Shown piece after piece: positions 2,140 to 57,378 of a stretch of 64,000 nt of DNA; within the stretch, counting starts at the first letter, position 1, and each line of letters starts with the position of its first letter. The DNA is from Candidatus Omnitrophota bacterium (GTDB lineage Bacteria > Omnitrophota > Gorgyraeia > Pluralincolimonadales > Pluralincolimonadaceae), in NCBI GenBank assembly GCA_003141835.1, contig PLNR01000009.1, forward strand, positions 72,307 to 136,306, in the 5' to 3' direction. A program made the translations under genes and the position numbers. Under the pieces are notes generated by a model that worked only from the letters and a program-made list of their open reading frames with translations, was not told the origin of the DNA and did not search any database.

Positions 2140-3849
2140 TTATTCCTCGTAGCCGTGCGTTATGCGCACGACCTCAGATATCGTGGTGATCCCTTCCATG
2201 GCTTTCGAGAGGCCGTCCTCGCGCAGTAACTTCATGCCGTGCTTGCGTGCCGCATCGCGGATCTCGGGAGAAGGCAGCCTCTTTATGATCATCTCCCTTA
2301 TCTCGTCGGTGTTGAGGAGGAGTTCGAAGATCCCTATCCTGCCCCTGTATCCCGTATAATTGCAGTTCTTGCATCCGCGCCCGCGCCATAATTTTATCCC
2401 GGCCGCGGCAGGATCGCCCTGCTTATGGCCGAGCACATATAATTCCTCGAGGGTCGGTGGGTACTCTTCCTTGCAATTGTCGCAGATCTTGCGGACGAGC
2501 CGCTGCGCCATTACCGCCTGCACCGTCGAGCTGACCAGGTAAGATTTCACTCCCATGTCTATCAGGCGCGTAAAAGCGCCGGCAGCGTCGTTGGTATGGA
2601 GCGTGCTGAAGAGGAGATGCCCGGTCAGGGCCGCCTGTATCGCGATGGATGCCGTTTCGAAATCGCGGATCTCGCCGACCATTATGACGTCAGGCGCCTG
2701 CCTCAGCATCGTCCTGAGGCCCGAAGCAAAAGTCAGCCCGATCGAAGGCCTGACGTGCACCTGGTTTATCCCGGAGATCTGGTATTCGACCGGGTCCTCG
2801 ATAGTTATTAATTTTTTGTTCGGTTTATTGATATAGCTGAGCGAGGCGTATAATGTAGTGGTCTTGCCGCTTCCGGTCGGGCCGGTTATAAGCAACATCC
2901 CGTAAGGGAGATGTATCAGCCTTTCGAACGTATCCGCGTCCCCGTGGAGGAATCCCAATTCCTTAAGGCCGAGCATGAAGCTCGATTTGTCGAGGATCCT
3001 CATGACCACGCTCTCGCCGTATAATGCGGGGAGGGTCGACACACGGAGGTCGAGGTCCTTGCCCGCGCCCGAGATCCTGATCCTGCCGTCCTGCGGCAGC
3101 CTCTTCTCCGCAATATTCATACCGGCCATGATCTTCAGGCGGCTTATGATGGAAGGCTGCAGCTGTTTCGGCGGGCCCGGCACTTCGTGCAGGACGCCGT
3201 CGATCCTGTACCTTATGCGAAATTTGTCCTCGAGCGGCTCCACGTGGATATCCGAGGCGCGGTTCTTCACGGCCTCGGCAATTATCTGCGTGACGAGCTT
3301 TATTATAGGGGCTTCCTCTTTCTCCTCTTCCTTGGCGACCTCGCCGGCCGCTCCCTTGAAAGAGACCGCTATCTCCGAGTCCTTTTTCGACGCGACCGCG
3401 TCCAGGATATTCTTGCTGCCCCCGTAATGTTTTTCGAGCGCGATAGAGAGGTTGGTCTCCGAGGTCAGGACAAAATTTAATTTACATCCGGTCAAAGCTT
3501 CGAGGTTATCCTGGGCAAGGAGGTTTATAGGATCATCGGTGCCGACGGTAAGCACGTCGTTTTCGTATTTCAGGGGTATCATCCTGTGCCGGTAAGCGAT
3601 GTTCGGCTTTACTTTCTGGAGCACGTCGAACGGTATCTCCATATCGAAGATCGGGGAACGGGCGAGGGAGAATTCCTGGACGATGAGGTCCCTAAGCTGT
3701 TCTATTTTTAAGAAACCTATACCTGCGAGGATCTCGGAGAGGCGGCCGCCTGATTCGACCTGGGTCTTTAGGATGTTCTTAACCTGGGATTCTTCCAGGA
3801 TCCCTATAGACCTGACGTATTCGGCTATGAGCCTGCTTTTATTCAGCAA
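2140..3849 (-). CDS. pilB: GspE/PilB-family secretion ATPase, paralog 2.
   Basis: 569 aa. Walker A GPTGSGKTTT. CDNC...CKNC zinc motif. GSPII_E N-domain present, but its MshEN motif is degenerate. Confidence 0.9.
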   Translation of the reverse strand: MLNKSRLIAEYVRSIGILEESQVKNILKTQVESGGRLSEILAGIGFLKIEQLRDLIVQEFSLARSPIFDMEIPFDVLQKVKPNIAYRHRMIPLKYENDVLTVGTDDPINLLAQDNLEALTGCKLNFVLTSETNLSIALEKHYGGSKNILDAVASKKDSEIAVSFKGAAGEVAKEEEKEEAPIIKLVTQIIAEAVKNRASDIHVEPLEDKFRIRYRIDGVLHEVPGPPKQLQPSIISRLKIMAGMNIAEKRLPQDGRIRISGAGKDLDLRVSTLPALYGESVVMRILDKSSFMLGLKELGFLHGDADTFERLIHLPYGMLLITGPTGSGKTTTLYASLSYINKPNKKLITIEDPVEYQISGINQVHVRPSIGLTFASGLRTMLRQAPDVIMVGEIRDFETASIAIQAALTGHLLFSTLHTNDAAGAFTRLIDMGVKSYLVSSTVQAVMAQRLVRKICDNCKEEYPPTLEELYVLGHKQGDPAAAGIKLWRGRGCKNCNYTGYRGRIGIFELLLNTDEIREMIIKRLPSPEIRDAARKHGMKLLREDGLSKAMEGITTISEVVRITHGYEE

Positions 3850-12354: not shown

Positions 12355-13800
12355 CTAAAGCTCCGGGCTCCTCTTGTGCCAATCGGTATTACTTTCGTAA
12401 GTATAAGCGACGCGAAATAAATCTTCTTCCTTAAAGAAATTCCCTATAAGCTGCATCCCTATCGGCAGGCCGCCCTTGGTGAATCCGCACGGCATAGATA
12501 ACGCCGGGACGCCCGCGAGGTTTACCGATATCGTGAATATGTCAGACAGGTACATAGAAAGCGGATCCGCGGATTTTTCCCCGACTTTGAACGCCGCTGT
12601 CGGTGAAGTCGGCGTTAATATGCAGTCGCAGCCGCCCTCAAAAACCTGATCAAAATCACTCTTTATCAGCCAACGGACTTTCTGCGCCTTAAGATAATAG
12701 GCGTCGTAATATCCGCTTGATAAGACATATGTGCCGAGGATTATCCTGCGCTTAGCCTCGGCGCCGAAACCTTCCCCGCGCGTCCTCTCGTACATATCCA
12801 GGAGGTTCGCCGGGTCCTCGCAACGGTATCCGTATTGCACTCCGTCAAAACGCGCAAGGTTCGATGACGCTTCTGCGGTCGCAAGGATATAATAGACTGC
12901 TACGGCATATTCGGTATGCGGCAGCGATACGTCGACGATCTGCGCGCCTTTGCCTTTAAGGAGGGCTATCGCTTCCCTGACCGCGGCCTCGACTTCTTTG
13001 TCCATCCCGGCCACGAAATATTCTTTGGGTATCCCGATCTTCATGCCTTTTACGTCGTTTTTCAGGCAAGACGCGTAATCGGGGACCGGGACATTAACCG
13101 ATGTCGAATCTTTTTCGTCAAAGCCCGCGATTACGCCGAGGAGGAGCGCCGCATCTTTGATATCCTTGGTGAACGGCCCGATCTGGTCCAGGCTTGAGGC
13201 GAACGCGATGAGCCCGTACCGCGATACCCTGCCGTATGTCGGTTTCATACCGACGACGCCGCAAAGCGAAGCCGGCTGCCTTATCGATCCGCCTGTATCC
13301 GAACCTATCGCCATTATCGCCTCGTCGGCCGAGACTACCGCCGCAGAACCGCCGCTCGAACCGCCGGGTATCCTCGATGTATCCCACGGGTTCAATGTCG
13401 GGAAATACGAGGAATTTTCGCAGGAAGAGCCGAACGCGAATTCGTCCATGTTAGTCCTGCCGAAGACCACCGCGCCGGCAGACCTTAATTTTTCGATGAC
13501 CGTGGCGTTATACGGGGGCTTGAAACCTCGGAGGATCTTTGAGGCGCAGGTAGTCAGCTCGCCCTCGACGCAGATATTGTCTTTTACCGCGACCGGGATG
13601 CCTTTCAACTTTCCGGTGGCCGGAAGGCTCTTGACATGGCGCAAGGCCATTTCTTTATCGAGGTTGATATAGCCTTTTATCTTTTTGTCTACGGATTGCG
13701 CGCGGGAATAGACCGATTCGATTATCTCTTCGGGTTTTACAGATTTCTTATCCAGCAGGCTCAAGAGTTCGCCGGCCGTGAGGGAATAAAGGTTATCCAT
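12355..13800 (-). CDS. gatA: Asp/Glu-tRNA amidotransferase subunit A (amidase).
   Basis: Amidase signature GGSSGGSAAVV. 481 aa, lies between gatC and gatB. Confidence 0.95.
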   Translation of the reverse strand: MDNLYSLTAGELLSLLDKKSVKPEEIIESVYSRAQSVDKKIKGYINLDKEMALRHVKSLPATGKLKGIPVAVKDNICVEGELTTCASKILRGFKPPYNATVIEKLRSAGAVVFGRTNMDEFAFGSSCENSSYFPTLNPWDTSRIPGGSSGGSAAVVSADEAIMAIGSDTGGSIRQPASLCGVVGMKPTYGRVSRYGLIAFASSLDQIGPFTKDIKDAALLLGVIAGFDEKDSTSVNVPVPDYASCLKNDVKGMKIGIPKEYFVAGMDKEVEAAVREAIALLKGKGAQIVDVSLPHTEYAVAVYYILATAEASSNLARFDGVQYGYRCEDPANLLDMYERTRGEGFGAEAKRRIILGTYVLSSGYYDAYYLKAQKVRWLIKSDFDQVFEGGCDCILTPTSPTAAFKVGEKSADPLSMYLSDIFTISVNLAGVPALSMPCGFTKGGLPIGMQLIGNFFKEEDLFRVAYTYESNTDWHKRSPEL

Positions 13801-13809
13801 ATACGCGAA

Positions 13810-14106
13810 TTATTCTTCTATTATCCTCGGGACCTTGAAGAAATCGCCTTTCTTCTGGGGGGCGTTCGAAAGCGCCTTTTCGGGCGGGAGCGACGGTTTT
13901 ACCTCATCCGCCCTAAAACTGTTAGAAGCGTCATGCGGATGGCTCATCGGAGGGGTGCGGTTCTGCACGTCGAGCTTCTGGTTCAGCTTATCGACATAAC
14001 CGAGTATCCCGTCCAGCTGGCGCGAGAAGAGGGCCACCTCTTCATCGGTCAGTTTTATCCTTGCCAACCGCGCGGCATATCTAACCTTCTCTTCCATTAC
14101 GCTCAT
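13810..14106 (-). CDS. gatC: Asp/Glu-tRNA amidotransferase subunit C.
   Basis: 98 aa. LARIKLTDEEVALFSRQLDGILGYVDKL is GatC-like. It precedes gatA. Confidence 0.9.
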   Translation of the reverse strand: MSVMEEKVRYAARLARIKLTDEEVALFSRQLDGILGYVDKLNQKLDVQNRTPPMSHPHDASNSFRADEVKPSLPPEKALSNAPQKKGDFFKVPRIIEE

Positions 14107-14154
14107 CTTAACTTGCTAAGATATCACAACTTACGCCGGATGTCAACCGGAGGA

Positions 14155-14994
14155 TTAGAGGGCGTTGGAGATGCGGGCGAATTCTTCGAGGGAGAGCTGT
14201 TCGGCCCTGATATTCGGGTCGATGCCTATCTTTTTGAGGAGTCCGGCGAGGCCTGCCTTATCGAGTTTTATCTCCTCGCTCGAAAGGAGGGAATTAAGCA
14301 GCATCTTCCTGCGCTGGCCGAAGCCCGCTTTGACGACTGCGAAAAATTTATCTTCGTCGTTGGCCTGGACCGGGGGTTTTTGTAGTATCGCGAGCTCGAC
14401 GAACGACGAATCGACCTCGGGTTCGGGATAGAACGCCTGCCTGCCTATGTCGAGCAATATGCGCGGCTTGGTGTAGTACTGCACGAAGACAGAGAGCGAA
14501 CCGTAATCCCTGCCGCCCGGCTTAGCGCATATCCTCTCGGCGACTTCCTTCTGGATCGTTATGAACACCGTCTCAAAATTATGCCTGCCGGCGATCAGTT
14601 TCTCTATTATCGGCGAGGTGATGTAATACGGGAGGTTGCCTATCACTTTGACTTTGTAAGGCGACTCGGCAAGCGCCCGCTCGAGATCGAGCTCCAGGAA
14701 ATCTTCGCAGACGATATTTACGTTGGTGAACCCCTTGAGGATATCGCCGAGCGCCACGCAGGTGCCCCTGTCCTTCTCTACGGCCAGGACATGCGATACA
14801 TGGTGCGCGAGGCGTTCCGTGACCGCGCCCAATCCCGCGCCTATCTCCATGACCCAGTCCGTATCGTTGAACTTGCAGGCTTCTATTATATCCTCGATGA
14901 CGTCGCTGTCGACAAGGTAGTTCTGGCCAAGATATTTCCTGGGCGTGAGCCCGTATCTTTTCAAGACAGATTTTAATTCGGATAGGTTGAGCAA
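14155..14994 (-). CDS. rsmA: 16S rRNA (adenine1518/1519-N6)-dimethyltransferase RsmA/KsgA.
   Basis: LGQNYLVDSDVIEDII...EIGAGLGAVT...VIGNLPYYITSPII. Confidence 0.95.
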   Translation of the reverse strand: MLNLSELKSVLKRYGLTPRKYLGQNYLVDSDVIEDIIEACKFNDTDWVMEIGAGLGAVTERLAHHVSHVLAVEKDRGTCVALGDILKGFTNVNIVCEDFLELDLERALAESPYKVKVIGNLPYYITSPIIEKLIAGRHNFETVFITIQKEVAERICAKPGGRDYGSLSVFVQYYTKPRILLDIGRQAFYPEPEVDSSFVELAILQKPPVQANDEDKFFAVVKAGFGQRRKMLLNSLLSSEEIKLDKAGLAGLLKKIGIDPNIRAEQLSLEEFARISNAL

Positions 14995-14996
14995 GT

Positions 14997-16001
14997 TCAG
15001 CCCTTCTTTTTCTTGAAGATATCTATGGCGAGTTTTACCGACTCGGTCAACGGCCTGTGATTGGCTATCCCTTTTCCGGCTATGTCGAAAGCCGTGCCGT
15101 GGCCGGGAGAGGTCCTTACGAACGGCAGGCCCAAGGTAATATTTATACTGGAGTCCCTGGCTATCATCTTCAACGGAGTAAGCCCCTGGTCATGGTACAT
15201 CGCTACGATGCAGTCGAGCTTCCGGCGGTAGGCCATGTAAAAGAGCGCCTCTGACGCGGCCGGCCCGACTATATTCTTAAAACGCTTCTTCGCTTCGTTG
15301 ACCGCGGGGGCTATTATTTCGATCTCCTCCGTGCCTATCTTCCCGCCTTCCCCGCCGTGCGGATTAAGGCTTGAGACCCCTATCCTCGGCTCGGCTATGC
15401 CGAAATAACCGGCCAGCGCCTCGTGGCTCAATCTTATGGCCCTGATTATCTCTTCTTTTGTGACCGCCTTCGGCACCGCGCGGACCGGGATGTGCCTCGT
15501 AACGAGAGTCACTTTAAGCGGCCCGCCTATAAGCATCATGGCAAAATCTTTCGTCCCAAATTTATTTGCCATATATTCCGTGTGCCCGATAAAATTTATG
15601 CCCGGGAACGCGGACGAGACCGCCTCTTTGCTTAACGGGGCGTTAACGAGGCAGTCAGCCTTCTTTTCTTTGATCAGTTTGAGCGCGAGGTCGAGATAGG
15701 CCAGGGAGGCCTCGCCGGAAAGCTTTGATTGGCGGCCGAATTTCACCTGGCTGGGGGCGATGATATACGGGTCTACCACCGAGATCCCTCGAAGGGACGC
15801 CACCGGGACCGCCGGGAGCCTCAACGCGGCGTTGATGACCGAGCTGTCGCCGACAATAATAAAATCGGCAAGCCTGCGTAACCTGCGGCTTACCAGCGTT
15901 TTTAATACTATCTCGGGCCCTATGCCGAAAGGATCACCTAAAGTAACGGCTACCCGCGGCCGCGACGGCTTGCGGGTTTTATTTGACCTGTATAAAAGCA
16001 T
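14997..16001 (-). CDS. pdxA: 4-hydroxythreonine-4-phosphate dehydrogenase PdxA.
   Basis: VAVTLGDPFGIGPEIVLK...GHTEY...NPHGGEGG. Confidence 0.9.
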   Translation of the reverse strand: MLLYRSNKTRKPSRPRVAVTLGDPFGIGPEIVLKTLVSRRLRRLADFIIVGDSSVINAALRLPAVPVASLRGISVVDPYIIAPSQVKFGRQSKLSGEASLAYLDLALKLIKEKKADCLVNAPLSKEAVSSAFPGINFIGHTEYMANKFGTKDFAMMLIGGPLKVTLVTRHIPVRAVPKAVTKEEIIRAIRLSHEALAGYFGIAEPRIGVSSLNPHGGEGGKIGTEEIEIIAPAVNEAKKRFKNIVGPAASEALFYMAYRRKLDCIVAMYHDQGLTPLKMIARDSSINITLGLPFVRTSPGHGTAFDIAGKGIANHRPLTESVKLAIDIFKKKKG

Positions 16002-16938
16002 CGCGTTTCAGTTTCGCTATCCAGTCCTGGTAACGTTTCTGGGCTTTTTCCCTGAAGATTATATTCTCTATATCCGACCGCGCTTCCGGAAGCGGACGCA
16101 CGTAGCTATCCTTCTTCTCGTCGACCTTGAAGATATAATATCCGGTATCGGTCTTTACCGGCTCGCTCACCTCGCCCGGCTTCAATGCGAATATAACCTT
16201 CTCGAAATCCTCGCGCATCTGGCCTCTCTCGACGGTCCCGAAATCCCCGCCTTCCTTCGCCTTGGCGCCCGTCGAATACGCTTTGGCCAACTCGCCGAAG
16301 TCGCGGCCTTCCTTGGCGAGTTTTACCATGTCATCGGCTTTCTGCTTGACGGCATCCTCGGTGCTATCCTGGTCGATACGGAGTATGATGCCGCGCAGAT
16401 GGACCGATTCCGGCGCCTTAAGTTCTTCCGCGTGTATTTTGTAATAATTCTCTATCTCGGTAGGCGTAACTACTACCTTACCCCTTACCTGGCTATCCAC
16501 GAGCTTGGTCATTATTATATTTTCCCTGTAGCGCTTTTTCAGGATCTCGGTAGAGACGCCTGACTTCTCGAGCTCGCCGTAAAATACCTCTTCCGAAGGA
16601 AAACGGGATTTCACTTCCTTTAACCTTTGTTCCACCTCGGCATCCGCTGCGGTGATATTGTCTTTTTTGGCTTCCTGGAGTATCAGCTTGTTCTCTATCA
16701 TCTGGTTCAGGAGGTCTTTGCGCACCTCTTCGGTCTTTGCCTTAAGTTCGTCCCCGGAATATTCTTTTTTCAGGTCATCGATGCTGGAAAGGAGGGCCTC
16801 GTCCAGGTCCGCCTCGGTGACGACATCATCGTTGACGACCGCGAGTATCTTGTTCACGGCGCCGGTCGTCTGGCATAACGCCAGGGACTGCAGCGCCAAG
16901 ACGAAGACCAGCAATAATATGCTTAACTTTGCCTTCAT
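15979..16938 (-). CDS. surA: SurA-like periplasmic chaperone / parvulin-type peptidyl-prolyl isomerase.
   Basis: Signal peptide, SurA N-domain, then a parvulin domain GGDFGTVERGQM...GEVSEPVKTDTGYYIFKV. Confidence 0.8.
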   Translation of the reverse strand: MKAKLSILLLVFVLALQSLALCQTTGAVNKILAVVNDDVVTEADLDEALLSSIDDLKKEYSGDELKAKTEEVRKDLLNQMIENKLILQEAKKDNITAADAEVEQRLKEVKSRFPSEEVFYGELEKSGVSTEILKKRYRENIIMTKLVDSQVRGKVVVTPTEIENYYKIHAEELKAPESVHLRGIILRIDQDSTEDAVKQKADDMVKLAKEGRDFGELAKAYSTGAKAKEGGDFGTVERGQMREDFEKVIFALKPGEVSEPVKTDTGYYIFKVDEKKDSYVRPLPEARSDIENIIFREKAQKRYQDWIAKLKRDAFIQVK

Positions 16939-17768
16939 TTACCCTGCCCTGCTTCCAGTAATTTCTCGTTTATCTTGACATGCGCTTTTGACCTCAGGCT
17001 TTTGACGAGGTCGTCGAGCGTCCTCTGCTGCGCCTTATCCTTCAATTCTTTTTCGATGGCGTCCCTGACCTCGGAAAGCTCCACCGTCCTCGGCTCGATC
17101 CTGTCGGTCAATTTTATGATATGGTATCCGAATTTTGTCTTGATTATGCCGCTCAACTGGCCGACCTGGAGCTTGAAACAGACCTCTTCTATCTCCGGCA
17201 TCAACTGGCCTTTTATGAAATAGCCCAAGTCGCCGCCCCTCGCTTTCGAGGGATCCTTCGAATATTGCTTAGCCAATTCGGCGAAATCGCCGCCGTCTTT
17301 GAGCTTCTGGAGGACTTCGTTGGCCTCGGCCTCGGTATCGACCATTATATGGCTCGCGCGCAGTTTTAACGGCGTGACAAAATCGTCCTTGTGTATAGCG
17401 TAAAACTCTTTTATCTTCTCCTCGCTCACCGCGGATTTCTTGACTTCGGTCTCCATCAGCCTGGCTATAAGTATCTTCCGCTTCGCCTCATCCAAAAGTT
17501 CCTTCACCTCAGGCTCCTTGTTGATGCCGCGCCTGAGCGCTTCCTTATAGATGAGCTGCTCATTTATCATATCGTCGAGGAAGTCTTTTTTCCGCTCGCC
17601 CACGAGCGTCTTATAGTAAGCGGGCATCTTGGAAACCCTCTTCTCGAAATCCCCTACGGTTATAGCCCTGCCGTCAACGGTCGCGAGAGGCTTGGATTTC
17701 GCATTACCGCACCCGGAAAAGGCGAAAATAGAGGCTATAAGCATAGTGATCAGGCAAAGTTTTTTCAT
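16935..17768 (-). CDS. Second SurA/PrsA-like parvulin PPIase, probably a lipoprotein.
   Basis: Parvulin domain GGDLGYFIKGQLMPEIE...KTKFGYHIIKL. The likely start is the ATG at 17768 (MKKLCLITMLIASIFAFSGC, a lipobox-like FSGC), rather than the 17852 start in the ORF track, which overlaps the mfd end. Confidence 0.75.
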   Translation of the reverse strand: MKKLCLITMLIASIFAFSGCGNAKSKPLATVDGRAITVGDFEKRVSKMPAYYKTLVGERKKDFLDDMINEQLIYKEALRRGINKEPEVKELLDEAKRKILIARLMETEVKKSAVSEEKIKEFYAIHKDDFVTPLKLRASHIMVDTEAEANEVLQKLKDGGDFAELAKQYSKDPSKARGGDLGYFIKGQLMPEIEEVCFKLQVGQLSGIIKTKFGYHIIKLTDRIEPRTVELSEVRDAIEKELKDKAQQRTLDDLVKSLRSKAHVKINEKLLEAGQGK

Positions 17769-17785
17769 ATTTAGGATATAATATA

Positions 17786-19708
17786 TCATAACCGGCTCCG
17801 GATAGGCAAGCCCTTTCGGAGCCCGGCTATCGTGCTCCTTAACAGCCTGCAATACATGTCGAAACCTATCGCCTGGATAAAGCCGTGCTGTTCGGTGCCC
17901 AAAAGGTTGCCGGCGCCGCGCAGCTCAAGGTCCTCCATCGCTATCTTAAAACCGGAACCGAGCTCGGTATGCTCCTCTATCGCCTTGAGCCTCGCCTCGG
18001 CATCCTTCGGCAATTGCCACCCCTTTGGATAAAGGAAATATGAATACGCCTGGACGATATACCTGCCCACCCTCCCCCTCAGCTGGTAGAGGTCGGCCAG
18101 GCCGAACATATCTGCGCGGTTCACAAATATAGTGTTCGCATTGGGGATATCGATGCCGGACTGGATTATGGCGGTCGAGACGAGCACGTCGATCCTGCCT
18201 TTTATGAAACCGACCATGATATTCTCCAGTTCGTGCGCAGGCATCTGCCCGTGCGCCTCTTCTATTTTGGCGTTGGGGACGATCTCCTTCAACCGCTGCG
18301 CCAGCTTATTCAGCCCCTGTATCCTGTTATTAACAAAGAAGACCTGGCCGCCGCGTTTCAGTTCGCGGGTTATCCCTTCTTTTATTATCCGCTCGTCGAA
18401 CTCCGCGATCCTCGTCGCGACCGGTATCCTGTTCGCCGGCGGGGTGTCGATGACCGACATATCCTTTATGCCCATCAGCGACATATAGAGGGTGCGCGGG
18501 ATCGGCGTGGCAGTAAGCGTCAGGACGTCGACTAAAAGCCTCATTCTCTTCAACCGCTCCTTGTGTTTTACCCCGAACCTCTGTTCCTCGTCGATTATCA
18601 CAAGTCCGAGCTCCTTGAACGCCACGTCCTGCGAGAGTAGCCTGTGCGTCCCTATTATGATATCGATCGAACCATCCTTTACCCCGGCGATTATCACGTC
18701 CTGTTCCGAACCGCTCCTGAAACGCGAGAGCATCTCGATATTTACCGGGTATTCCTTCATCCTCTCCTTGAAGGTTGCGTAATGCTGTTCGGCGAGGATG
18801 GTAGTCGGCACGAGCATCGCGACCTGTTTGTTGTCAGTCACCGCCTTGAACGCGGCGCGCAAAGCGACTTCGGTCTTTCCGTATCCCACGTCGCCGCAGA
18901 CGAGCCTGTCCATCGGCTTCGGGCTTTCCATATCGCGTTTTATCTCCCGGGTCGCCCTTACCTGCGCCGGCGTATCCTTGAACCGGAACGACTTCTCGAG
19001 CCCGGCCTGCCACTCGGTATCTTTTGAAAATGCGTAGCCCTTCAACGACTCCCGCTTCGCCTGGATCTCGATGTATTCGAGGGCGAGCGAATAGATGCCT
19101 TTCCTGGCTCGCGCCTTCGCCAGCGCCCACGCCTTAGTCCCGAGCTTATAGAGCTTGGGCGGGCGCCCCTCGAAACCTATATATTTCTGGACGAGGCCCA
19201 TATCCGACATAGGCACGAAAAGTTTCGCGGCCTCGGCGTATTCGAGGACGATATAGTCGACGAATCCCTTCGGCTCCTTTACCCTCTCTATCCCTTTATA
19301 CCGGCCTATGCCGTGTTTTACGTGGACGACGTGATCGCCCGGGGATATGTCGACGAAGTTGCTTATCGGCAGCTCTTCGGATATGTCCAGTCCGGGAATG
19401 CGGCGGGTCTTTAGTTTGCGCGGGACTATGCCTTTGACCGGAAGGATGATCGCCATCTGGTGGTCGAGGAAAGAAGTGCCTGTGGCGATGTCGAACGATT
19501 TGATATGCGCGAGCCTGTCCGCGTCGAACTCGAGGCGCACCGGCTCGTCGAAGGTCATAGGAAAGATATCGAGGATCCCGCCGCGCTGGGCAAAGTCCCC
19601 CTCTTCGGCAACTTTCGGCCGCCGCTCATAACCCAGCTCGACCAGGCGGCCGTGCACCTTATCGAGGCTCAATTCCTCGTTCTTATAGAGTTTAAGTGAT
19701 TCGAACAT
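17786..19708 (-). CDS. mfd: Transcription-repair coupling factor Mfd, compact form lacking domains D1a, D1b, D3 and D7.
   Basis: D2-like [13 protein letters not shown]-interaction domain [17 protein letters not shown]. Translocase motifs [41 protein letters not shown]. The most likely start is the ATG at 19708, which is preceded by GGAGA-5nt. The ORF-track extension to 19999 reads through a repeat element. Confidence 0.85.
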
Positions 19709-19858
19709 AAATTTCTCCACGGCTTGTGTCACGTCTATCAACAGGTCCTTAGACCTCGTACGGGCGGGTCCTGCCTGCCGAGCACCTCGTCCCATTTTGC
19801 TTCGGGCAAAAGGGACAAGGGCTCCGTCGGCAGTCACCCGCTTGAACCAAAAGCAGTG

Positions 19859-20051
19859 CCGCAAATTCATTGCTCGGAAAACGAGGGTCTTTTGCCCCTC
19901 ATCGCCTGGAAAGACTCGAGCGGGCACGGATCGCCCGCTTATAATATCCTGCGAGAGCGAGAGGATTTCAAGCGGCGCGGGCCTCGCAGGGGCCCGCAAG
20001 CGCGCGATGAGGGGAAAAGAACCCGAGTTTTAGACCGCTGTGAATTTGCGG
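19859..20051 (-). mobile_element. MITE-like 193-bp GC-rich structured repeat with 11-bp terminal inverted repeats (CCGCAAATTCA...TGAATTTGCGG), copy A.
   Basis: About 90% identical to 55677-55867 in the opposite orientation. It fills most of the mfd-argS intergenic region. There is an internal long-range stem CCCCTCATCGC/GCGATGAGGGG and nested hairpins. Confidence 0.7.
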
Positions 20052-20066
20052 CCGGCACTGCGAAAG

Positions 20067-21728
20067 CTACATCTTTGCGGGACAGGAGACTCCGAGCAGG
20101 GTCAGGCCGTTGGCGAGTGTCTGCTTGACGCATGAGACCAGGTACAGCCTCGCGCGGCTGAGTTCCGCGTCGTCAGAGATAACCTTGTTCGCCTCGTAGA
20201 ATTTATGGAAACACGCAGCCAGTTCCTGCAGGTATGTTATTATCCTGTAAGGGTCGAGCTCCTGCGCGGCAAGTTTCACCGACGGCGGGAACTGCCTCAA
20301 TTCCTTGAATAAACTCAATTCCTCAGGCGCGCCGAGCAGCTCGAGGTCCGCGCCGGCGATATCATTATCCGGTAATTTCGACAAGGCAAGTATGCTGCAT
20401 ATCCTCGCGTGGGCGTACTGGACATAATAGACCGGGTTCTCCGGCGTCTGTTTCTTCGCAAGCTCCAGGTCGAAATCGAGGTGCGCATTGGCCTTCCTCA
20501 TCAGGAAGAAGAACCGCGCCGCGTCCTTGCCGACCTCATCGAGGACTTCGCGCAGGGTTATGTACTCGCCGGCCCGCGTGGACATCTTGACCGGCTGGCC
20601 GTTCTTATATAACGTCGCCAGCTGGATTATTATTATCGATACGGCGTCGGCCGGATAGCCTAGCGCCTGGACCGCGGCCTTTATCCTGTTTATATATCCG
20701 TGGTGGTCCGGCCCGAGTATGTCGATGACGCGCGAGAAGCCGCGTTCGAATTTATCCTTGTGATAGGCGATGTCCGGCGTCACGTACGTGTATGTGCCGT
20801 CGCTCTTTTTCAAGACCCTGTCCTTGTCGTCGCCGAACTGCGTGGACTTGAACCAGAGCGCGCCTTCTGCCTCGTACAATAATCCCTTATCCTTAAGGAG
20901 GCCGAGCGTCTTCTCTATCTTGCCTGACGCGCCCAGCGCCTTCTGGCTGAACCAGACGTCGAATTTCACGCCGAAATCCAGGAGCTCTTGTCTAATTTCT
21001 TTCAAGAGGTAATGACAACCCCAGACCGAGAATACCTTGAGGTCTTCAGCCGACCCGGCCTTGTATTTGTCACCGTGCTCCTTGCGGAACTCCTCGGCCA
21101 TCTCCTTAATATACTCGCCTTTATAGCCGTTCTCCGGGAACTCATACTGGTCGCCGATCTCCTGCCTGTACCTGGCGTATATAGACTGGCCGAGTATCGT
21201 TATCTGGACGCCTTCGTCGTTTATGTAATATTCGCGGGTCACATCGAAACCGTTGGCCTTGATTATATTGGCGAGTGAGTCGCCGAACGCGGCCTGGCGC
21301 GCGTGCGCGACGCTCAGCGTGCCGGTAGGGTTCGCACTGACGAACTCGACCTGTATCTTCTTTCCCTTCCCGGAATCGTTATGGCCGAACTTCTCTTTCC
21401 CGGACCTTATATCCTTGAGCACCTGGCGCAGCGCACCGGCAGAAAGCCTGATATTTATAAAACCGTTGAGCGGCTCTACGGCATCGATGGTGCTTTTGAG
21501 CGGTGAGGACGCGAGGGCGCCGGTGAGCGCCTTGGCTATCTCCTTGGCCAGCTCGGCCGGATTTATCTTCAGCGGCTTTGCCAGCCTGAAGGCAATATTC
21601 GTCGAGATGTCGCCGTGGGAGGGATCCCTGGGGTTCTCGAGAAAAAGGAAATCAGCGGAGTAAAGGCCCTTAAGCCTTTCCAACCCGCTTAAATTCCTGT
21701 CTATAAATCCGAGTATTTGTTTTTCCAT
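20067..21728 (-). CDS. argS: Arginine--tRNA ligase.
   Basis: SANPTGTLSVAHARQAAFGD (HIGH-like) and KMSTRAGE (KMSK). The likely start is the ATG at 21728 (MEKQILGFIDRNL), downstream of a hairpin. Confidence 0.9.
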   Translation of the reverse strand: MEKQILGFIDRNLSGLERLKGLYSADFLFLENPRDPSHGDISTNIAFRLAKPLKINPAELAKEIAKALTGALASSPLKSTIDAVEPLNGFINIRLSAGALRQVLKDIRSGKEKFGHNDSGKGKKIQVEFVSANPTGTLSVAHARQAAFGDSLANIIKANGFDVTREYYINDEGVQITILGQSIYARYRQEIGDQYEFPENGYKGEYIKEMAEEFRKEHGDKYKAGSAEDLKVFSVWGCHYLLKEIRQELLDFGVKFDVWFSQKALGASGKIEKTLGLLKDKGLLYEAEGALWFKSTQFGDDKDRVLKKSDGTYTYVTPDIAYHKDKFERGFSRVIDILGPDHHGYINRIKAAVQALGYPADAVSIIIIQLATLYKNGQPVKMSTRAGEYITLREVLDEVGKDAARFFFLMRKANAHLDFDLELAKKQTPENPVYYVQYAHARICSILALSKLPDNDIAGADLELLGAPEELSLFKELRQFPPSVKLAAQELDPYRIITYLQELAACFHKFYEANKVISDDAELSRARLYLVSCVKQTLANGLTLLGVSCPAKM

Positions 21729-21748
21729 CTTACCTGTTAAATATAATG

Positions 21749-21770
21749 CCACCCGCATTGACGCGGGTGG
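21749..21770 (-). terminator. Putative intrinsic terminator hairpin between rsfS and argS.
   Basis: CCACCCGC-attgac-GCGGGTGG is a perfect 8-bp stem. On the minus strand it is followed by CAUUAUAUUU. Confidence 0.45.
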
Positions 21771-21789
21771 CATTAATGTGAACTATCGC

Positions 21790-28234: not shown

Positions 28235-28816
28235 TCATTTTTGGACGTGACCCTTCTCCCCTCTTGTCTTGCAATAAATTCTTATACTCTCAAGAAGTTT
28301 TTGTTTTCCTTCAATTGCTTTACCTTTACTAGTCAAGAGTTCCATACTTTGCCTACCGACGGTGGCTGGCTGATAATAAGGACCTTCTGGAAACTTATCT
28401 GTTATTTTCCCATTGAGAAAAAATCTAGAGCTAGATGTCAATTCTGGTTTCATCGCTTCTTTCTTCAGAAATAATACAACGGTATCGCCCGGGCCCAAAT
28501 ACATGCCTTCTTCGCTGATAGCTATCTCCTGCAAAATAAAAACTTCTCTAGAGTTTTCCTCCCCAAATAAAATTTCTTTTATTTCAATCCTTTTTATGGA
28601 CCCCGATGCGTCGCCTGTTAAGCGTTTCTTTTCTTGGTCATAGTCTGCAATTATTCCCGATTCAACAACAGTACCGATAATTATCAAGTCTGATTCGTCC
28701 ACTTTTTCATGAAGAGGGATCCACTGGGAAAGAGCATTCACATTACTAATACAAAACAACAAAAATCCCATAATAAATAATGCTATTGTTCCATATTTAG
28801 ATTTCAAAAATGGCAT
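28235..28816 (-). CDS. Hypothetical secreted protein, AT-rich gene.
   Basis: N-terminal signal/anchor MPFLKSKYGTIALFIMGFLLFCISNVNA. I recognise no family. Confidence 0.55.
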   Translation of the reverse strand: MPFLKSKYGTIALFIMGFLLFCISNVNALSQWIPLHEKVDESDLIIIGTVVESGIIADYDQEKKRLTGDASGSIKRIEIKEILFGEENSREVFILQEIAISEEGMYLGPGDTVVLFLKKEAMKPELTSSSRFFLNGKITDKFPEGPYYQPATVGRQSMELLTSKGKAIEGKQKLLESIRIYCKTRGEKGHVQK

Positions 28817-36493: not shown

Positions 36494-36952
36494 CTATTCA
36501 ATCGGGGGATCGGACACGCCCGCTTTCCCCCCGCTCTTTGCCCTTATTATGCCTGTGCTGTCGGTAAAAAAATACCTGTTCCCTGTCCTGCCCGGGGTAG
36601 TCGGTTCGGCGCTCAGCTCAAAATTTTCCGGGTCGACGAACGTATAATTGAACCTGTAGCCCTGTTTCTGCTTGTTTACGGCCAGGACCGAATCGAGGTA
36701 GGGCGGATCGGAATCAGGCGCGACCAGGTTATCCAGGGCTGCCGGGAAAGTATGGGGGCTCGAATTCGTATAATAGCTGTTGCAGGCCGACCCGATCGTC
36801 CGGCACGACACTATGGCCGATGCCTCGTTCGCGTTTATGCGGGATGTAAGGAAGACAGGAATGGCAATTGCCGCCAAAGTAGCTATAATGGCGATAACTA
36901 TCATTATTTCTACGAGAGTAAAACCGTAATATGATAGTTTTTCTTCTTTCAT
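36494..36952 (-). CDS. pilA: Type IVa major pilin, paralog 1.
   Basis: Prepilin leader MKEEKLSYYG, then FTLVEIMIVIAIIATLAAIAIP (class III signal with Glu at +5). Confidence 0.9.
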   Translation of the reverse strand: MKEEKLSYYGFTLVEIMIVIAIIATLAAIAIPVFLTSRINANEASAIVSCRTIGSACNSYYTNSSPHTFPAALDNLVAPDSDPPYLDSVLAVNKQKQGYRFNYTFVDPENFELSAEPTTPGRTGNRYFFTDSTGIIRAKSGGKAGVSDPPIE

Positions 36953-36960
36953 TGGATTTT

Positions 36961-36989
36961 AGTTTATATTTTTTAAGCAAAAAAGTCAA
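36961..36989 (-). promoter_or_regulatory. Putative sigma70 promoter (TTGACT-17-TAAACT) for pilin paralog 1. It implies a leaderless or near-leaderless mRNA.
   Basis: The -10 element ends about 9 nt before the ATG at 36952 and there is no Shine-Dalgarno. Confidence 0.3.
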
Positions 36990-37057
36990 GGAAAATTGCC
37001 AAATATTACGATATTTCCCTCTTGACAGCCCCGCTGCGGCGGGACGTTGCAAAACTC

Positions 37058-37086
37058 TTGATATTAACAGGGCGTTATAGTAAACT
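37058..37086 (+). promoter_or_regulatory. Putative sigma70 promoter (TTGATA-17-TAAACT) for the plus-strand minor-pilin operon.
   Basis: Followed by a GGAGGGA Shine-Dalgarno and the ATG at 37107. Confidence 0.35.
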
Positions 37087-37106
37087 TTTAATTGGAGGGA
37101 TGCGAG

Positions 37107-37586
37107 ATGCGGTACAATCCGCTTAAACGCGGTTTTACTCTGATGGAAGTGATGTTCGCGGCCGGGATAATGCTCATCGCCATAGGCGGACTTTTGGGGG
37201 GATACGTTCTCTGTTTTAACCTGAGCGAGACGGCAAAGAACTTGACCTTAGCCGATAACGCTATCCAGCAGAAACTTGAAGAGATACACTACCAGATGCT
37301 CGAAACAACCACTTATTATGATAATACTACATTCGATATTCCGGGTTTCGCGCCTGGGAATGCCAAAGGCGCGATCTACGTAGACGCCATTCCCAATAGC
37401 ACGGACCTCAAAAGAGTGACTATCTCCGTCTCCTGGCGGCAAAAAAGCGGAAGGATAATCGGGTCGGATAACGGCAGCGGCGGCGGGATGGCGCTTAACG
37501 GGATACGCGACGGTACGGAGCAGGTGGACGCGAACGGTTGCCTGACATCTCCGGCGATGATCTCAGAGGTGGTGACGGACAGATGA
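37107..37586 (+). CDS. Minor pilin/pseudopilin with a prepilin-type N-terminal methylation domain (PilV-like).
   Basis: MRYNPLKRG then FTLMEVMFAAGIMLIAIGGL. The ORF-track start at 37092 is a TTG inside the Shine-Dalgarno. Confidence 0.8.
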   Translation: MRYNPLKRGFTLMEVMFAAGIMLIAIGGLLGGYVLCFNLSETAKNLTLADNAIQQKLEEIHYQMLETTTYYDNTTFDIPGFAPGNAKGAIYVDAIPNSTDLKRVTISVSWRQKSGRIIGSDNGSGGGMALNGIRDGTEQVDANGCLTSPAMISEVVTDR

Positions 37587-54489: not shown

Positions 54490-55566
54490 TTACTGTGATT
54501 CAGGGGACTTCGACGCGGTAGTGACCGTCACCTTCTTGAGATATTTTATTTCGCTTAAGACCATCCCTGTCCCGAGCGCGACCGCTGTGATCGGGTCCTC
54601 GGCTATGTGTACGGGAAGGCCTGTCTGTTCCGAAAGGAGTTTGTCCAGGCCCCTGAGCAACCCGCCGCCGCCTGCCAATACCATCCCGCGCTCTATGAGG
54701 TCCGCGGAAAGCTCCGGCGGTGTGCGCTCGAGGGTTATCCTGACCGCCTCGACTATGGCAGCTATTGGCTCCGCAAGAGCTTCTCTTACTTCCTCGGAAG
54801 AGATCGTGACCGTCTTCGGGAGGCCGGCAACCAGGTCGCGGCCGCGGACTTCCATCGTCATCTCCTCATCAAGCGGATAAGCCGAGCCTATCTTTATCTT
54901 TACCTCCTCGGCGGTGCGTTCGCCGATCATAAGATTATAAGTCTTTTTCAGGTGCTGTATTATCGCGTCGTCCATCTCGTCGCCGCCTATGCGGATAGAT
55001 TTCGAGTAGACTATATCGGAGAGTGAGACTACGGCCATCTCTGTCGTGCCGCCGCCGATATCGATAATCATGTTGCCGGCGGGTTCCTGTATCGGCAGCC
55101 CGACGCCTATCGCGGCCGCTATCGGCTCCTCGACGAGGTATACCTCGCGGGCGCCTGCCCTCTCGGCCGAATCCTTGACCGCGCGCTTCTCGACCTCGGT
55201 AATGCCCGAGGGGATGGCGATTACCATGCGCGGCCTGACCAAAACTCTCCTGTTGTGGACCTTATTAATAAAATACCGAAGCATAGCTTCGGTGATCTCA
55301 AAATCAGCAATAACTCCGTCTTTCATCGGCCTTATGGCCACTATCGAACCGGGGGTGCGGCCTAACATCCGCTTCGCCTCTTCGCCGACCGCCAGGACAT
55401 GGTTAGTCCCTTTCTGAATGGCGACGACCGAAGGTTCGCAAAGCACTATCCCTTGGCCTTTTACGTAAACAAGCGTGCTCGCCGTGCCAAGGTCGATGCC
55501 CATGTCGTTTGAGAACATGCCGGAGATATTGTTAAATCCCCTCTTTAAGACATCGAAAATGTTCAC
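54490..55566 (-). CDS. mreB: Rod shape-determining actin homolog MreB.
   Basis: [13 protein letters not shown]...IDIGGGTTE... Confidence 0.95.
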
Positions 55567-55676: not shown

Positions 55677-55867
55677 CCGCAAATTCACAGCGGTCTAAAA
55701 CTCGGGTTCTTTTCCCCTCATCGCCCGCTTGCGGGCCCCTGCGAGGCCCGCGCCGCTTGAAATCCTCTCGCTCTGCCTTAAGTAATAGCGGGGCAGCCGT
55801 GCCCGCTCGAGTCTTTCCAGGCGATGAGGGGCAAAAGACCCTCGTTTTCCGAGCAATGAATTCGCGG
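55677..55867 (+). mobile_element. MITE-like 191-bp GC-rich structured repeat with 11-bp TIRs (CCGCAAATTCA...TGAATTCGCGG), copy B.
   Basis: Inverted homolog of 19859-20051. It contains the stem CCCCTCATCGCC/GGCGATGAGGGG enclosing about 110 nt of nested hairpins. Confidence 0.7.
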
Positions 55868-55924
55868 AGGCGGCTTGTGCTTTAAGCCTAATATATGGCC
55901 CATAGACCTTCGTGTTATTGCAGG

Positions 55925-55990
55925 GCTTTACTAATCCGAGCGGGCCGGTTCGCCAGGCAATCTTTTATCTGCGAGAGCGAGGAGTATAGT
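55925..55990 (-). repeat. Degenerate fragment of the same repeat family, in the opposite orientation to copy B.
   Basis: The shared blocks CGAGCGGGC and CTGCGAGAGCGAGGA are collinear with the middle of the element. Confidence 0.4.
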
Positions 55991-56091
55991 ACAGAGTGAT
56001 CCCATCTGCTGGGATGGGAGAACGTCCCTGCAAGAACACAAGGTCGAAGGGCCAGCATATAGATGCCGGGATGAAGAGACAAGCCGCGGGA

Positions 56092-57378
56092 TTATACTAA
56101 AAGGGAATCGAGGTCTTTGAGGAAGTTGGGATATGACTTGGCGATGCAGGAGGTGTCGTCAATGACGGTGTCGCCCTTCGCCGCGAGGCCTGCGACGGCT
56201 ATCGACATCGCGGTCCTGTGGTCGCCGAAGCTCATCGCGGTTATGCCATTAAGCGCGCCGGTCCCCTCGATGACGATATCGTCGCCCTTCAGGTTGAACT
56301 TCGCGCCCATGTTCTTTAAGTTCGCGGCCATCGAGCTTATCCTGTCGGTCTCCTTGACCTTGAGTTCCTGAACGCCTTTTATTATCGTAATGCCTCTGGC
56401 GTAAGCGGCCGCGACCATGACAACGGGCAATTCATCTATCGAACGCGGGATGAGGTCCCCCTCTATGACCGCGCCGCGCAACTCGCTGCTCTCTATGGTT
56501 ATGTCGCCGACCGGCTCTGACGCTGCCTCCCTCGCATTTTCTATCGTGATCTTCGCGCCCATCTTATTGAGGATATCTATTATCCCGGTCCGCGTGGGAT
56601 TTACGCCGATCGACTTAAGCGTCACTGACGAATCCTTTACTATCGTCGCGGCAACCATGAAGAACGCTGCGGCGGATATATCTCCGGGGACATCTATATC
56701 CTGCGCGCGCAAATTCGCCCCGCCCTCGACCGATACCTTAAGCCCTTCGGCCGAGACACGCGCGCCGAACGCCTTGAGCATTCGCTCCGTATGGTCCCTC
56801 GACTTCGACGGCTCGGTGACAGAGGTCTTCCCGCCGGCGTAAAGCCCGGCTAGGAGGATCGCGGATTTGACCTGCGCGCTCGCGACCGGCGAAACATAAT
56901 CTATGGGTTTTAATTTCCCGCCGCGCACGGTTATCGGCGCGTAATCGGCGTTGTTCTTACCCTCGAATTTAGCGCCCATCAGGGAGAGCGGCTCGGTGAC
57001 GCGGCGCATCGGCCGCGCGGCCAATCCCTTATCAGCGGTCAAGGTCGCCGCGAAAGGCTGGCCTGCCAGGATGCCGAGGAGCAGGCGCATCGACGTGCCG
57101 GAATTGCGCATGAAAATCGGCCCTGAGGGTTCTTTTAGGCCTTTAATGCCGAGGCCTATTATGGTTATTTCATCAGGACTTTCTTTGATATCGATGCCGA
57201 GGGCGCGGAACGCCTCTATCGTGGTGAGGGTATCGTCTGAATGGAGTATATTCTTGATGACGCTCGTGCCGTTAGCGAGCGAGGCGAGCATAACGGCCCT
57301 GTGGGAGATGGACTTATCGCCGGGTAAAGCCAGGGATCCGCGCAATCTTTTTGCGGGTCTTATCGTGGCGGAGCTCAA
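56092..57378 (-). CDS. aroA: 3-phosphoshikimate 1-carboxyvinyltransferase.
   Basis: LPGDKSISHRAVMLASLANG...RPM... Confidence 0.95.
   Translation of the reverse strand: MSSATIRPAKRLRGSLALPGDKSISHRAVMLASLANGTSVIKNILHSDDTLTTIEAFRALGIDIKESPDEITIIGLGIKGLKEPSGPIFMRNSGTSMRLLLGILAGQPFAATLTADKGLAARPMRRVTEPLSLMGAKFEGKNNADYAPITVRGGKLKPIDYVSPVASAQVKSAILLAGLYAGGKTSVTEPSKSRDHTERMLKAFGARVSAEGLKVSVEGGANLRAQDIDVPGDISAAAFFMVAATIVKDSSVTLKSIGVNPTRTGIIDILNKMGAKITIENAREAASEPVGDITIESSELRGAVIEGDLIPRSIDELPVVMVAAAYARGITIIKGVQELKVKETDRISSMAANLKNMGAKFNLKGDDIVIEGTGALNGITAMSFGDHRTAMSIAVAGLAAKGDTVIDDTSCIAKSYPNFLKDLDSLLV

Follow-up and report, generated by a model that had tools for sequence, protein, structure and literature searches.

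The 64,000-nt stretch of a Candidatus Omnitrophota contig analysed here (PLNR01000009.1; hereafter the window) contains two closely similar GC-rich sequences in opposite orientations, and the question that this locus raises is what kind of element they are. The initial annotation offered two answers, a structured RNA or a miniature inverted-repeat transposable element (MITE). Its picture of a GC-rich, structured, MITE-like repeat stands; at the same time, a plain MITE predicts terminal repeats but not the conserved, asymmetric and strand-specific core described below. The two copies (A and B), together with a third (C), are members of a widespread group of rod-shaped intergenic repeats of 190-220 nt, and we consider it fairly probable that these are non-autonomous and carry a structured single-strand module, probably an RNA.

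Copy A occupies positions 19856-20054 (19859-20051 as first delimited), with its core at 19888-20022, and copy B occupies positions 55677-55867, with its core at 55706-55838. As originally described, both are intergenic, A lying between argS and an mfd-like gene and B between a 5-enolpyruvylshikimate-3-phosphate (EPSP)-synthase-family gene and mreB. The two had been reported as inverted copies of about 90% identity; blastn of the reverse complement of A against B gives 93.3% identity over 193 columns (E 9e-79), and the copies are 99% identical once a single hairpin, P3, is left out. The reported terminal inverted repeats are present in both copies as CCGCAAATTCA / TGAATT(T/C)GCGG, and the homology ends with them, running on for 5 nt through GCCGG on one side; the T/C difference results in a G.U pair in copy B, and in relatives the repeats can be extended to GGCCGCAAATT. 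A 12-bp stem, CCCCTCATCGCC/GGCGATGAGGGG, had been called perfect, which holds for copy B, while copy A keeps 11 of the 12 pairs; a search with this inner stem returned 5 matches where 0.6 were expected by chance. Each copy folds into a single long rod with a branched centre, with energies of -93.4 and -85.7 kcal/mol for the two copies (z -6.0 for A, -5.1 for B), and none of 200 shuffled sequences folded as well.

A scan of a genome collection with the arm pattern gave seven loci, six of which were chance matches. The one real relative, L004, is an Omnitrophica WOR_2 metagenome-assembled genome, which is syntenic with window positions 13079-20364 at 78-85% identity and has a full copy where the window is empty (14119-14156), adjoined by an element of a second kind with other arms and the same central motifs. 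When metagenome contigs were scanned with the pattern GAGCGGGCACGG-N14-31-AGAGCGAGA, at least 120 loci were recovered; a whole-element profile matched 102 of the 120 matches listed, and the other 18 were chance matches. The further copies that the initial annotation had proposed to look for therefore exist, as 102 of the matches listed and, within the window itself, copy C. Its count of two copies was too low, the window having three core-bearing copies and one core-less relative.

Copy C (55870-56087, core 55909-56043) has diverged and represents another subfamily. Only 2 nt separate it from copy B, to which it is oriented head-to-head, and a gap of 5 nt lies between its other end and the stop codon of the EPSP-synthase-family gene. 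It folds at -96.2 kcal/mol (z -5.5) and is recognised by our covariance model, R1, with 60.9 bits (E 7.5e-16), copy C having been absent from the training set of that model. Its orthologue is found at positions 3365-3499 of locus L074, which also holds the positional orthologue of copy B. Whereas B and C are adjacent in the window, their L074 orthologues are separated by an AT-rich region (2850-3320) in which a small membrane-protein-like gene is encoded on the minus strand.

The members share a layout on one strand, which we call S and define as the strand carrying GAGCGGGCACGG; S is the plus strand in copies A and C and the minus strand in copy B. Outermost is a variable stem, P1/P2. Inside it, the core forms an asymmetric three-way junction with about 40 conserved junction nucleotides, read in the order GAGCGGGCAYGG, hairpin P3, AGAGCGAG. 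Arm 1 of the core consists of a helix, a CGAGC/GCGAG pairing with tandem G.A pairs, the loop GGGCAYGGU, hairpin P3 and then AGAGCGAG; arm 2 consists of GAAGCG, hairpin P4 with the loop ACGCUGG (consensus (A/U)CGC(U/A/C)GG) and AAGCG, with AGCG/AGCG pairing. In copy A, all on the plus strand, the junction motif GAGCGGGCACGG lies at 19918-19929, helix P3 (UCGC...GCGA, with an AT-rich loop) at 19931-19954, the conserved motif AGAGCGAGA, which pairs with the first motif as CGAGC/GCGAG, at 19954-19962, and helix P4 (GCGGGCC-UCGCAGG-GGCCCGC) at 19977-19997. The ends differ between subfamilies, and the core is common to subfamilies with unrelated termini. Copies A and B belong to one of these subfamilies, fam1, five copies of which (A, B and those in L004, L035 and L074) could be aligned over 67 pairs. 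In three other loci (L009 at about 3000-3200, L018 and L127) a hairpin-forming insertion of about 200 nt is found just after AGAGCGAGA and the 3' strand of the helix, and these insertions look like nested repeats.

Comparison of the members shows that the predicted helices covary. RNAalifold analysis of 53 members predicted 27 pairs, 22 of them with double changes, and the resulting alignment was used to build R1, whose hits in the window are A (97.4 bits), B (94.1 bits) and C. Among 82 hits of the model, standard pairs make up 92.6% of the pair cells, compared with 67.7% after shuffling and 38-62% in slid controls; the covariation score reaches 0.582, compared with 0.16 for shuffled and at most 0.134 for slid controls; and 24 of the 27 pairs show compensatory changes. 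The covariation that the initial annotation had suggested checking among aligned homologues is thus seen, in a different place from the one first indicated. The hairpin AGCGGGC...GCCCGCT, which had been read as compensatory, is not a pairing conserved in the family and has the near-invariant motif GAGCGGGCACGG as its 5' half. Between A and B the true compensatory change affects helix P3, which is where the two copies diverge: UCGC...GCGA in A is replaced by UGCC...GGCA in B and alignment pairs 81/102 and 82/101 are altered on both sides. Within fam1, 9 of the 67 pairs change on both sides. Moreover, the model alone picked up 11 members, copy C among them, in which the exact search pattern is absent but GAGCGGGCAYGG-like and GAGCGAG motifs are still present; GAGCGGGCACGG, invariant in the pattern-selected members, is near-invariant in these 11. 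The conservation is thus not only an effect of the search pattern.

The structure is biased towards one strand. Strand S folds better than its complement in 72 of 75 members, by 10.8 kcal/mol on average, and G.U outnumbers A.C in the consensus pairs (47 versus 25); in fam1, all five one-sided changes give G.U on strand S. This bias fits RNA. The commonest non-standard pair is G.A (95 cells), mostly in tandem inside helices. We considered a kink-turn for these pairs and rejected it, as Watson-Crick pairs adjoin the tandem G.A on either side and a 3-nt bulge is missing.

As DNA, the elements behave like MITEs or repetitive extragenic palindromic (REP) sequences, being multicopy, variable in presence, found in either orientation and near gene 3' ends, sometimes nested, and homogenised within a genome. 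There are three copies in the 64-kb window and three in 8 kb of L004. The site that is empty in the window (14119-14156) holds two elements in L004 and L056, and the L004 counterpart of the copy-A site has a fragment of a fam1 arm and two other family members. In the folD-metF spacer of five related contigs, the distance from the folD stop to the element is 15, 55 or 80 nt, both orientations occur and the outer stems differ, as would be expected of independent insertions. Among the matches listed, 12 loci have more than one copy, and the copies there, like B and C, are often head-to-head; 28 copies are antisense to both neighbouring genes and 20 are co-directional with both; and most abut a stop codon. 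Of those at most about 60 nt from the stop, 37 are convergent with the gene and 20 co-directional with it, which may be an orientation bias, although the element boundaries are approximate. Enrichment at contig ends is weak in the same set (23% against 15% expected), and the elements may fragment metagenome assemblies.

No direct repeat that could be a target-site duplication was found at any of the five fam1 copies. In the main metagenomic subfamily the flanking T...A is complementary rather than direct, is part of the stem and covaries to C...G. Neither a parent or autonomous insertion sequence (IS) nor any termini enclosing an open reading frame (ORF) or transposase were seen in 818 kb of sequence. 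An all-against-all comparison of 167 neighbouring proteins revealed no recurrent family beyond orthologous loci, the neighbours being unrelated housekeeping genes, and association with a particular gene, as for a riboswitch or for an RNA linked to a reverse transcriptase, TnpB or IscB, was rejected for want of a recurrent neighbour family. Better conservation on the sense strand of the neighbouring genes was also considered, and no difference was found.

Copies A and B have evolved in concert. Outside P3 they are 99% identical, while copy A and its positional orthologue in L035 are 92% identical and copy B and its orthologue in L074 85%, which points to gene conversion or recent copying and to a mosaic structure. 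The P3 segment is locus-specific, that of B resembling L074 and also a different subfamily in L004. The homogenisation of A and B shows either recombination or recent copying. The initial annotation had proposed that recombination between the two could invert the 35.6-kb segment 20052-55676; such an inversion is feasible, as A and B share identical blocks of 66, 49 and 48 bp, but neither of the relatives L004 and L074 shows it. The junctions are colinear between the window and both loci, and the genes flanking each junction are all on the minus strand, so that no inversion is evident.

Members of the family occur on contigs of 37% to 70% GC. Judging by the names of neighbouring proteins or of their 90%-identity clusters, hosts beside Omnitrophica include Candidatus Aminicenantales (L085), Acidobacteriota (L046) and a Parcubacteria-group bacterium (L031), and the family appears to span three or more bacterial phyla; several loci of the main subfamily, with 65-69% nucleotide identity to window genes, are probably from Omnitrophota too. 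The exact pattern has no match among the viral contigs of IMG/VR and blastn found none among the plasmids of PLSDB, and with both searches empty a phage or plasmid origin was discarded. A match to a known Rfam family was likewise not obtained: neither the window nor 20 of the loci had an Rfam 15 hit at gathering thresholds, and the sub-threshold matches (E 0.24 at best, range 0.24-6) are chance-like. Literature searches on RNA motifs or MITEs in Omnitrophica/Omnitrophota and on the motif sequences, as well as a paper on 224 candidate RNA motifs, yielded no description of the element. This family of intergenic hairpin repeats is large and uncatalogued.

How might such an element work? We propose that strand S would act as a single-stranded nucleic acid, most probably an RNA whose transcription would start at adjacent promoters or read through from the neighbouring genes. 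Pairing of the long outer stem would join the ends and display the junction, which a trans-acting factor, presumably a protein, would recognise. This recognition, either in the copying of the element or as an RNA-level activity of the cargo that may benefit the cell, would hold the core constant and leave the outer stems to drift by compensatory change. Several observations weigh against this proposal. Roughly one copy in two is antisense to both neighbouring genes, in some cases within a spacer of 25-30 nt, and among the matches listed the antisense copies are conserved as well as the co-directional ones, so that selection in situ for an mRNA-borne RNA cannot explain conservation in every copy. 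The strand bias and the tolerance of G.U and G.A would also fit a folded single-stranded DNA (ssDNA) intermediate, and strand S is G-rich, which alone favours more stable folds. Mobility is deduced from distribution only, with no target-site duplication, parent element or enzyme found, and core-less elements share the termini of the main subfamily, which can thus spread in the absence of the core. Two motifs are invariant in most of the sample because the search pattern requires them, the 11 members found by the model alone giving the only unbiased view, and the taxonomy is read from the names of 90%-identity protein clusters at few loci.

A more specific version of the RNA proposal is that the core is a new cross-phylum class of functional RNA, for example a self-processing ribozyme or the ligand of a protein, which uses hairpin repeats as "vehicles" and underwent independent amplification in Omnitrophota, Acidobacteriota and the candidate phyla radiation (CPR); we put this forward tentatively, as a possibility somewhat short of even. 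That the elements are instead plain DNA MITEs seems to us unlikely. They would then be internally deleted derivatives of a cut-and-paste transposon, moved via their terminal inverted repeats, with the hairpin a by-product of palindromy and the core preserved by young age and horizontal movement. The terminal inverted repeats, the small non-coding body, the occurrence in either orientation, the presence differences and the nesting are all as expected of MITEs, as are the core-less elements with the same termini, the T...A flanking many main-subfamily members and a conservation independent of the neighbours' strand. A plain MITE does not account, however, for an asymmetric core that is shared by subfamilies with unrelated termini and has helices covarying over hosts of 37-70% GC in three phyla, nor for the strand bias in wobble pairs; moreover, the direct duplication is missing in fam1, the TA of the main subfamily belongs to the stem and is replaced by C...G in other members, and no transposase is flanked by the termini in 818 kb of sequence. 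Another possibility is propagation through ssDNA. Here an HUH (Y1) transposase would read P3 and P4 with their AGCG flanks on the lagging-strand template, as in REP sequences and bacterial interspersed mosaic elements (BIMEs) mobilised by REP-associated tyrosine transposases (RAYTs), or in palindrome-associated transposable elements (PATEs) derived from IS200/IS605. It would explain the strand-specific structure with its tolerated G.T and G.A pairs, the two same-strand hairpins each flanked by RAGCG repeats, the lack of target duplication, and the extragenic positions just past stop codons, with head-to-head pairs, clusters and concerted evolution as in BIMEs and REP doublets forming hairpins (REPINs). 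We nevertheless give it a similarly small chance, since the elements are five to ten times the length of a REP and have no GTAG head, their long terminal inverted arms are absent from IS200/IS605 ends, their orientation is mixed within 36 kb (A plus, B minus, C plus) with no visible replication-strand bias, and no RAYT or TnpA gene lies beside any copy.

Two alternatives remain. If the element acted in cis as a large REP-like hairpin at the 3' end of the upstream mRNA, protecting or terminating that mRNA, maybe with an outward promoter for the downstream gene, and were kept for this local use, one would expect the proximity to stop codons noted above, the very stable stems in both orientations and the promoter-like sites that face mfd (copy A) and copy B and mreB (copy C). 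We regard this as quite improbable: the hairpin lacks a downstream U-tract and none of A, B and C has a predicted terminator-like site, a stabiliser needs a stem only and leaves about 40 conserved junction nucleotides on one strand unexplained, and the -35-like sequence facing mfd is confined to fam1. Highly improbable, finally, is that these are ordinary chromosomal small-RNA genes, such as a divergent 6S-like rod RNA, duplicated by chance. A rod of about 190 nt that is conserved across phyla and in some loci (e.g. L045 and L121) stands alone between housekeeping genes would be in keeping with that; several copies within a few kb, presence that varies between relatives, antisense copies inside tight operon spacers, the lack of a conserved promoter or terminator, and the failure of the Rfam 6S models to match are not.

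Among known repeats, the bacterial MITEs Correia/NEMIS of Neisseria, RUP of Streptococcus and ERIC/IRU of enterobacteria are non-coding, imperfectly palindromic sequences of 100-250 bp with inverted ends; they lie between genes and are often co-transcribed, occur in either orientation and in many copies, vary in presence and can carry promoter-like sequences. The present element resembles them in being small, palindromic, intergenic and multicopy, in its either orientation and variable presence, and in its promoter-like sequences, but its ends vary by subfamily while an asymmetric junction with covarying helices is conserved across phyla, and neither a TA or other target duplication nor a parent IS was found for it. 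In MITEs the ends are usually conserved and the inside is free; here this rule is reversed, with variable ends and a constant junction. With REPs, BIMEs and REPINs the element shares its nature as an extragenic palindrome after stop codons, its inverted pairs and clusters, its homogenisation and its strand-specific hairpins. REP units, on the other hand, are 20-40 nt long, have a GTAG head and little internal complexity, and are mobilised by RAYT transposases, while the present element measures 190-220 nt and has a three-way junction with about 40 conserved unpaired nucleotides, no GTAG-headed unit and no RAYT gene beside any copy.

The core also resembles orphan bacterial RNAs known from comparative genomics, such as raiA, OLE, ROOL and HEARO, which have conserved junction or loop nucleotides and compensating helices, span phyla and are of unknown function; those are, however, single genes or tied to certain neighbours, while the element is dispersed, multicopy, found in either orientation and placed inside hairpin repeats. 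Like 6S RNA it is rod-like, about 190 nt long and paired at its 5' and 3' ends, but 6S RNA has a large central bubble where the element has a three-way junction with its own motifs, and occurs in only one or two copies per genome. By analogy only, short interspersed nuclear elements (SINEs), such as Alu derived from 7SL RNA, also consist of many non-autonomous copies of a structured RNA module, whose fold is kept from active master copies and not by selection in place; the present element differs in lacking a poly(A) tail, an internal promoter and a reverse-transcriptase partner, and in being closed by long inverted arms.

A functional RNA at the core would represent a large new class, with more than 100 distinct examples and about 40 conserved nucleotides, found in poorly studied and mostly uncultured lineages (Omnitrophota, Aminicenantales, Parcubacteria) and unusual in spreading as a dispersed repeat instead of residing in a single gene; it would be a bacterial counterpart of RNA-derived dispersed repeats. 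If the core is instead the handle of a copying machinery, that mobilisation system would read a folded junction and not the ends of the element. In practice, the repeats cause spurious ORF extensions and offer substrates for gene conversion and inversions; spurious ORFs, possible assembly breaks and recombination substrates are reasons for annotation pipelines to mask or model them in these phyla.

The spurious extension is seen at the mfd-like gene downstream of copy A (17786-19708, minus strand; domains UvrB_inter, CarD_TRCF_RID, DEAD and Helicase_C). As the initial annotation had recognised, the ORF called at 17786-19999 runs too far: it adds 97 codons upstream of the true ATG (19708), crossing the leader and entering copy A, and similarity to the L004 mfd orthologue stops at about 19713. 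The mfd-like protein has only 640 aa, where a typical Mfd has about 1,100-1,200, and may be a short form or the product of a split gene. On the other side of copy A is argS (20067-21773, minus strand), whose stop is about 13 nt from the element. Copy B lies upstream of mreB (54490-55566, minus strand), which has its own promoter-like site at 55661-55633, and the stop of the EPSP-synthase-family gene (murA/aroA type; 56092-57378, minus strand) abuts copy C.

Two further promoter-like sites, both on the minus strand and both matches to the consensus only, lie within the elements. A sigma-70-like TTGAAA-17-GATATT on the antisense strand of copy A (19943-19971) is directed towards mfd, its -35-like TTGAAA being the one peculiar to fam1. 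A sigma-70-like ATAACA-17-TATATT in the 5' arm of copy C (55890-55918) points into strand S of copy B and onward to mreB, and a similar sequence is present in L004 and L074. A "third component" promoter that seemed to accompany fam1 5' ends (AAAGCC..TATATT..ACAAGCCGC) proved to be the 5' arm of a neighbouring element of the C type or of fam2, and a sigma-54 promoter within GGGCACGGTTGCC was dismissed on inspection for its wrong GG-to-GC spacing. At the hairpin ends of the main subfamily, runs of A follow.

The core-less relative in the window is a 78-nt hairpin in the mfd leader (19764-19841, minus strand; fold z -7.0) whose termini, GCGGGUGAC...GGCAGGACCCGC, are those of the main metagenomic subfamily. 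It has an orthologue at L035 2197-2271, and the same termini are found in L035, L051/L092, L020, L125, L101 and L126; such core-less relatives are hairpins of 62-95 nt. Two sequences, at L020 1251-1330 (minus strand) and L125 2351-2439 (plus strand), have these termini around another interior (GGGGCCCCC...GAGCACGGAUGGGG), which may be a second type of cargo. The window also holds two long inverted-repeat pairs that are unrelated to the element in sequence, at 36902-37154 and 28286-28554, with arms of 25 and 22 nt placed 203 and 225 nt apart. Finally, the low-GC metagenome contig L013, which bears a member of the family, also has a match to a group I intron at 311-504 on the minus strand (Rfam RF00028, 61.5 bits) and a gene that resembles a transposase, judged by eye from its N-terminal sequence alone.

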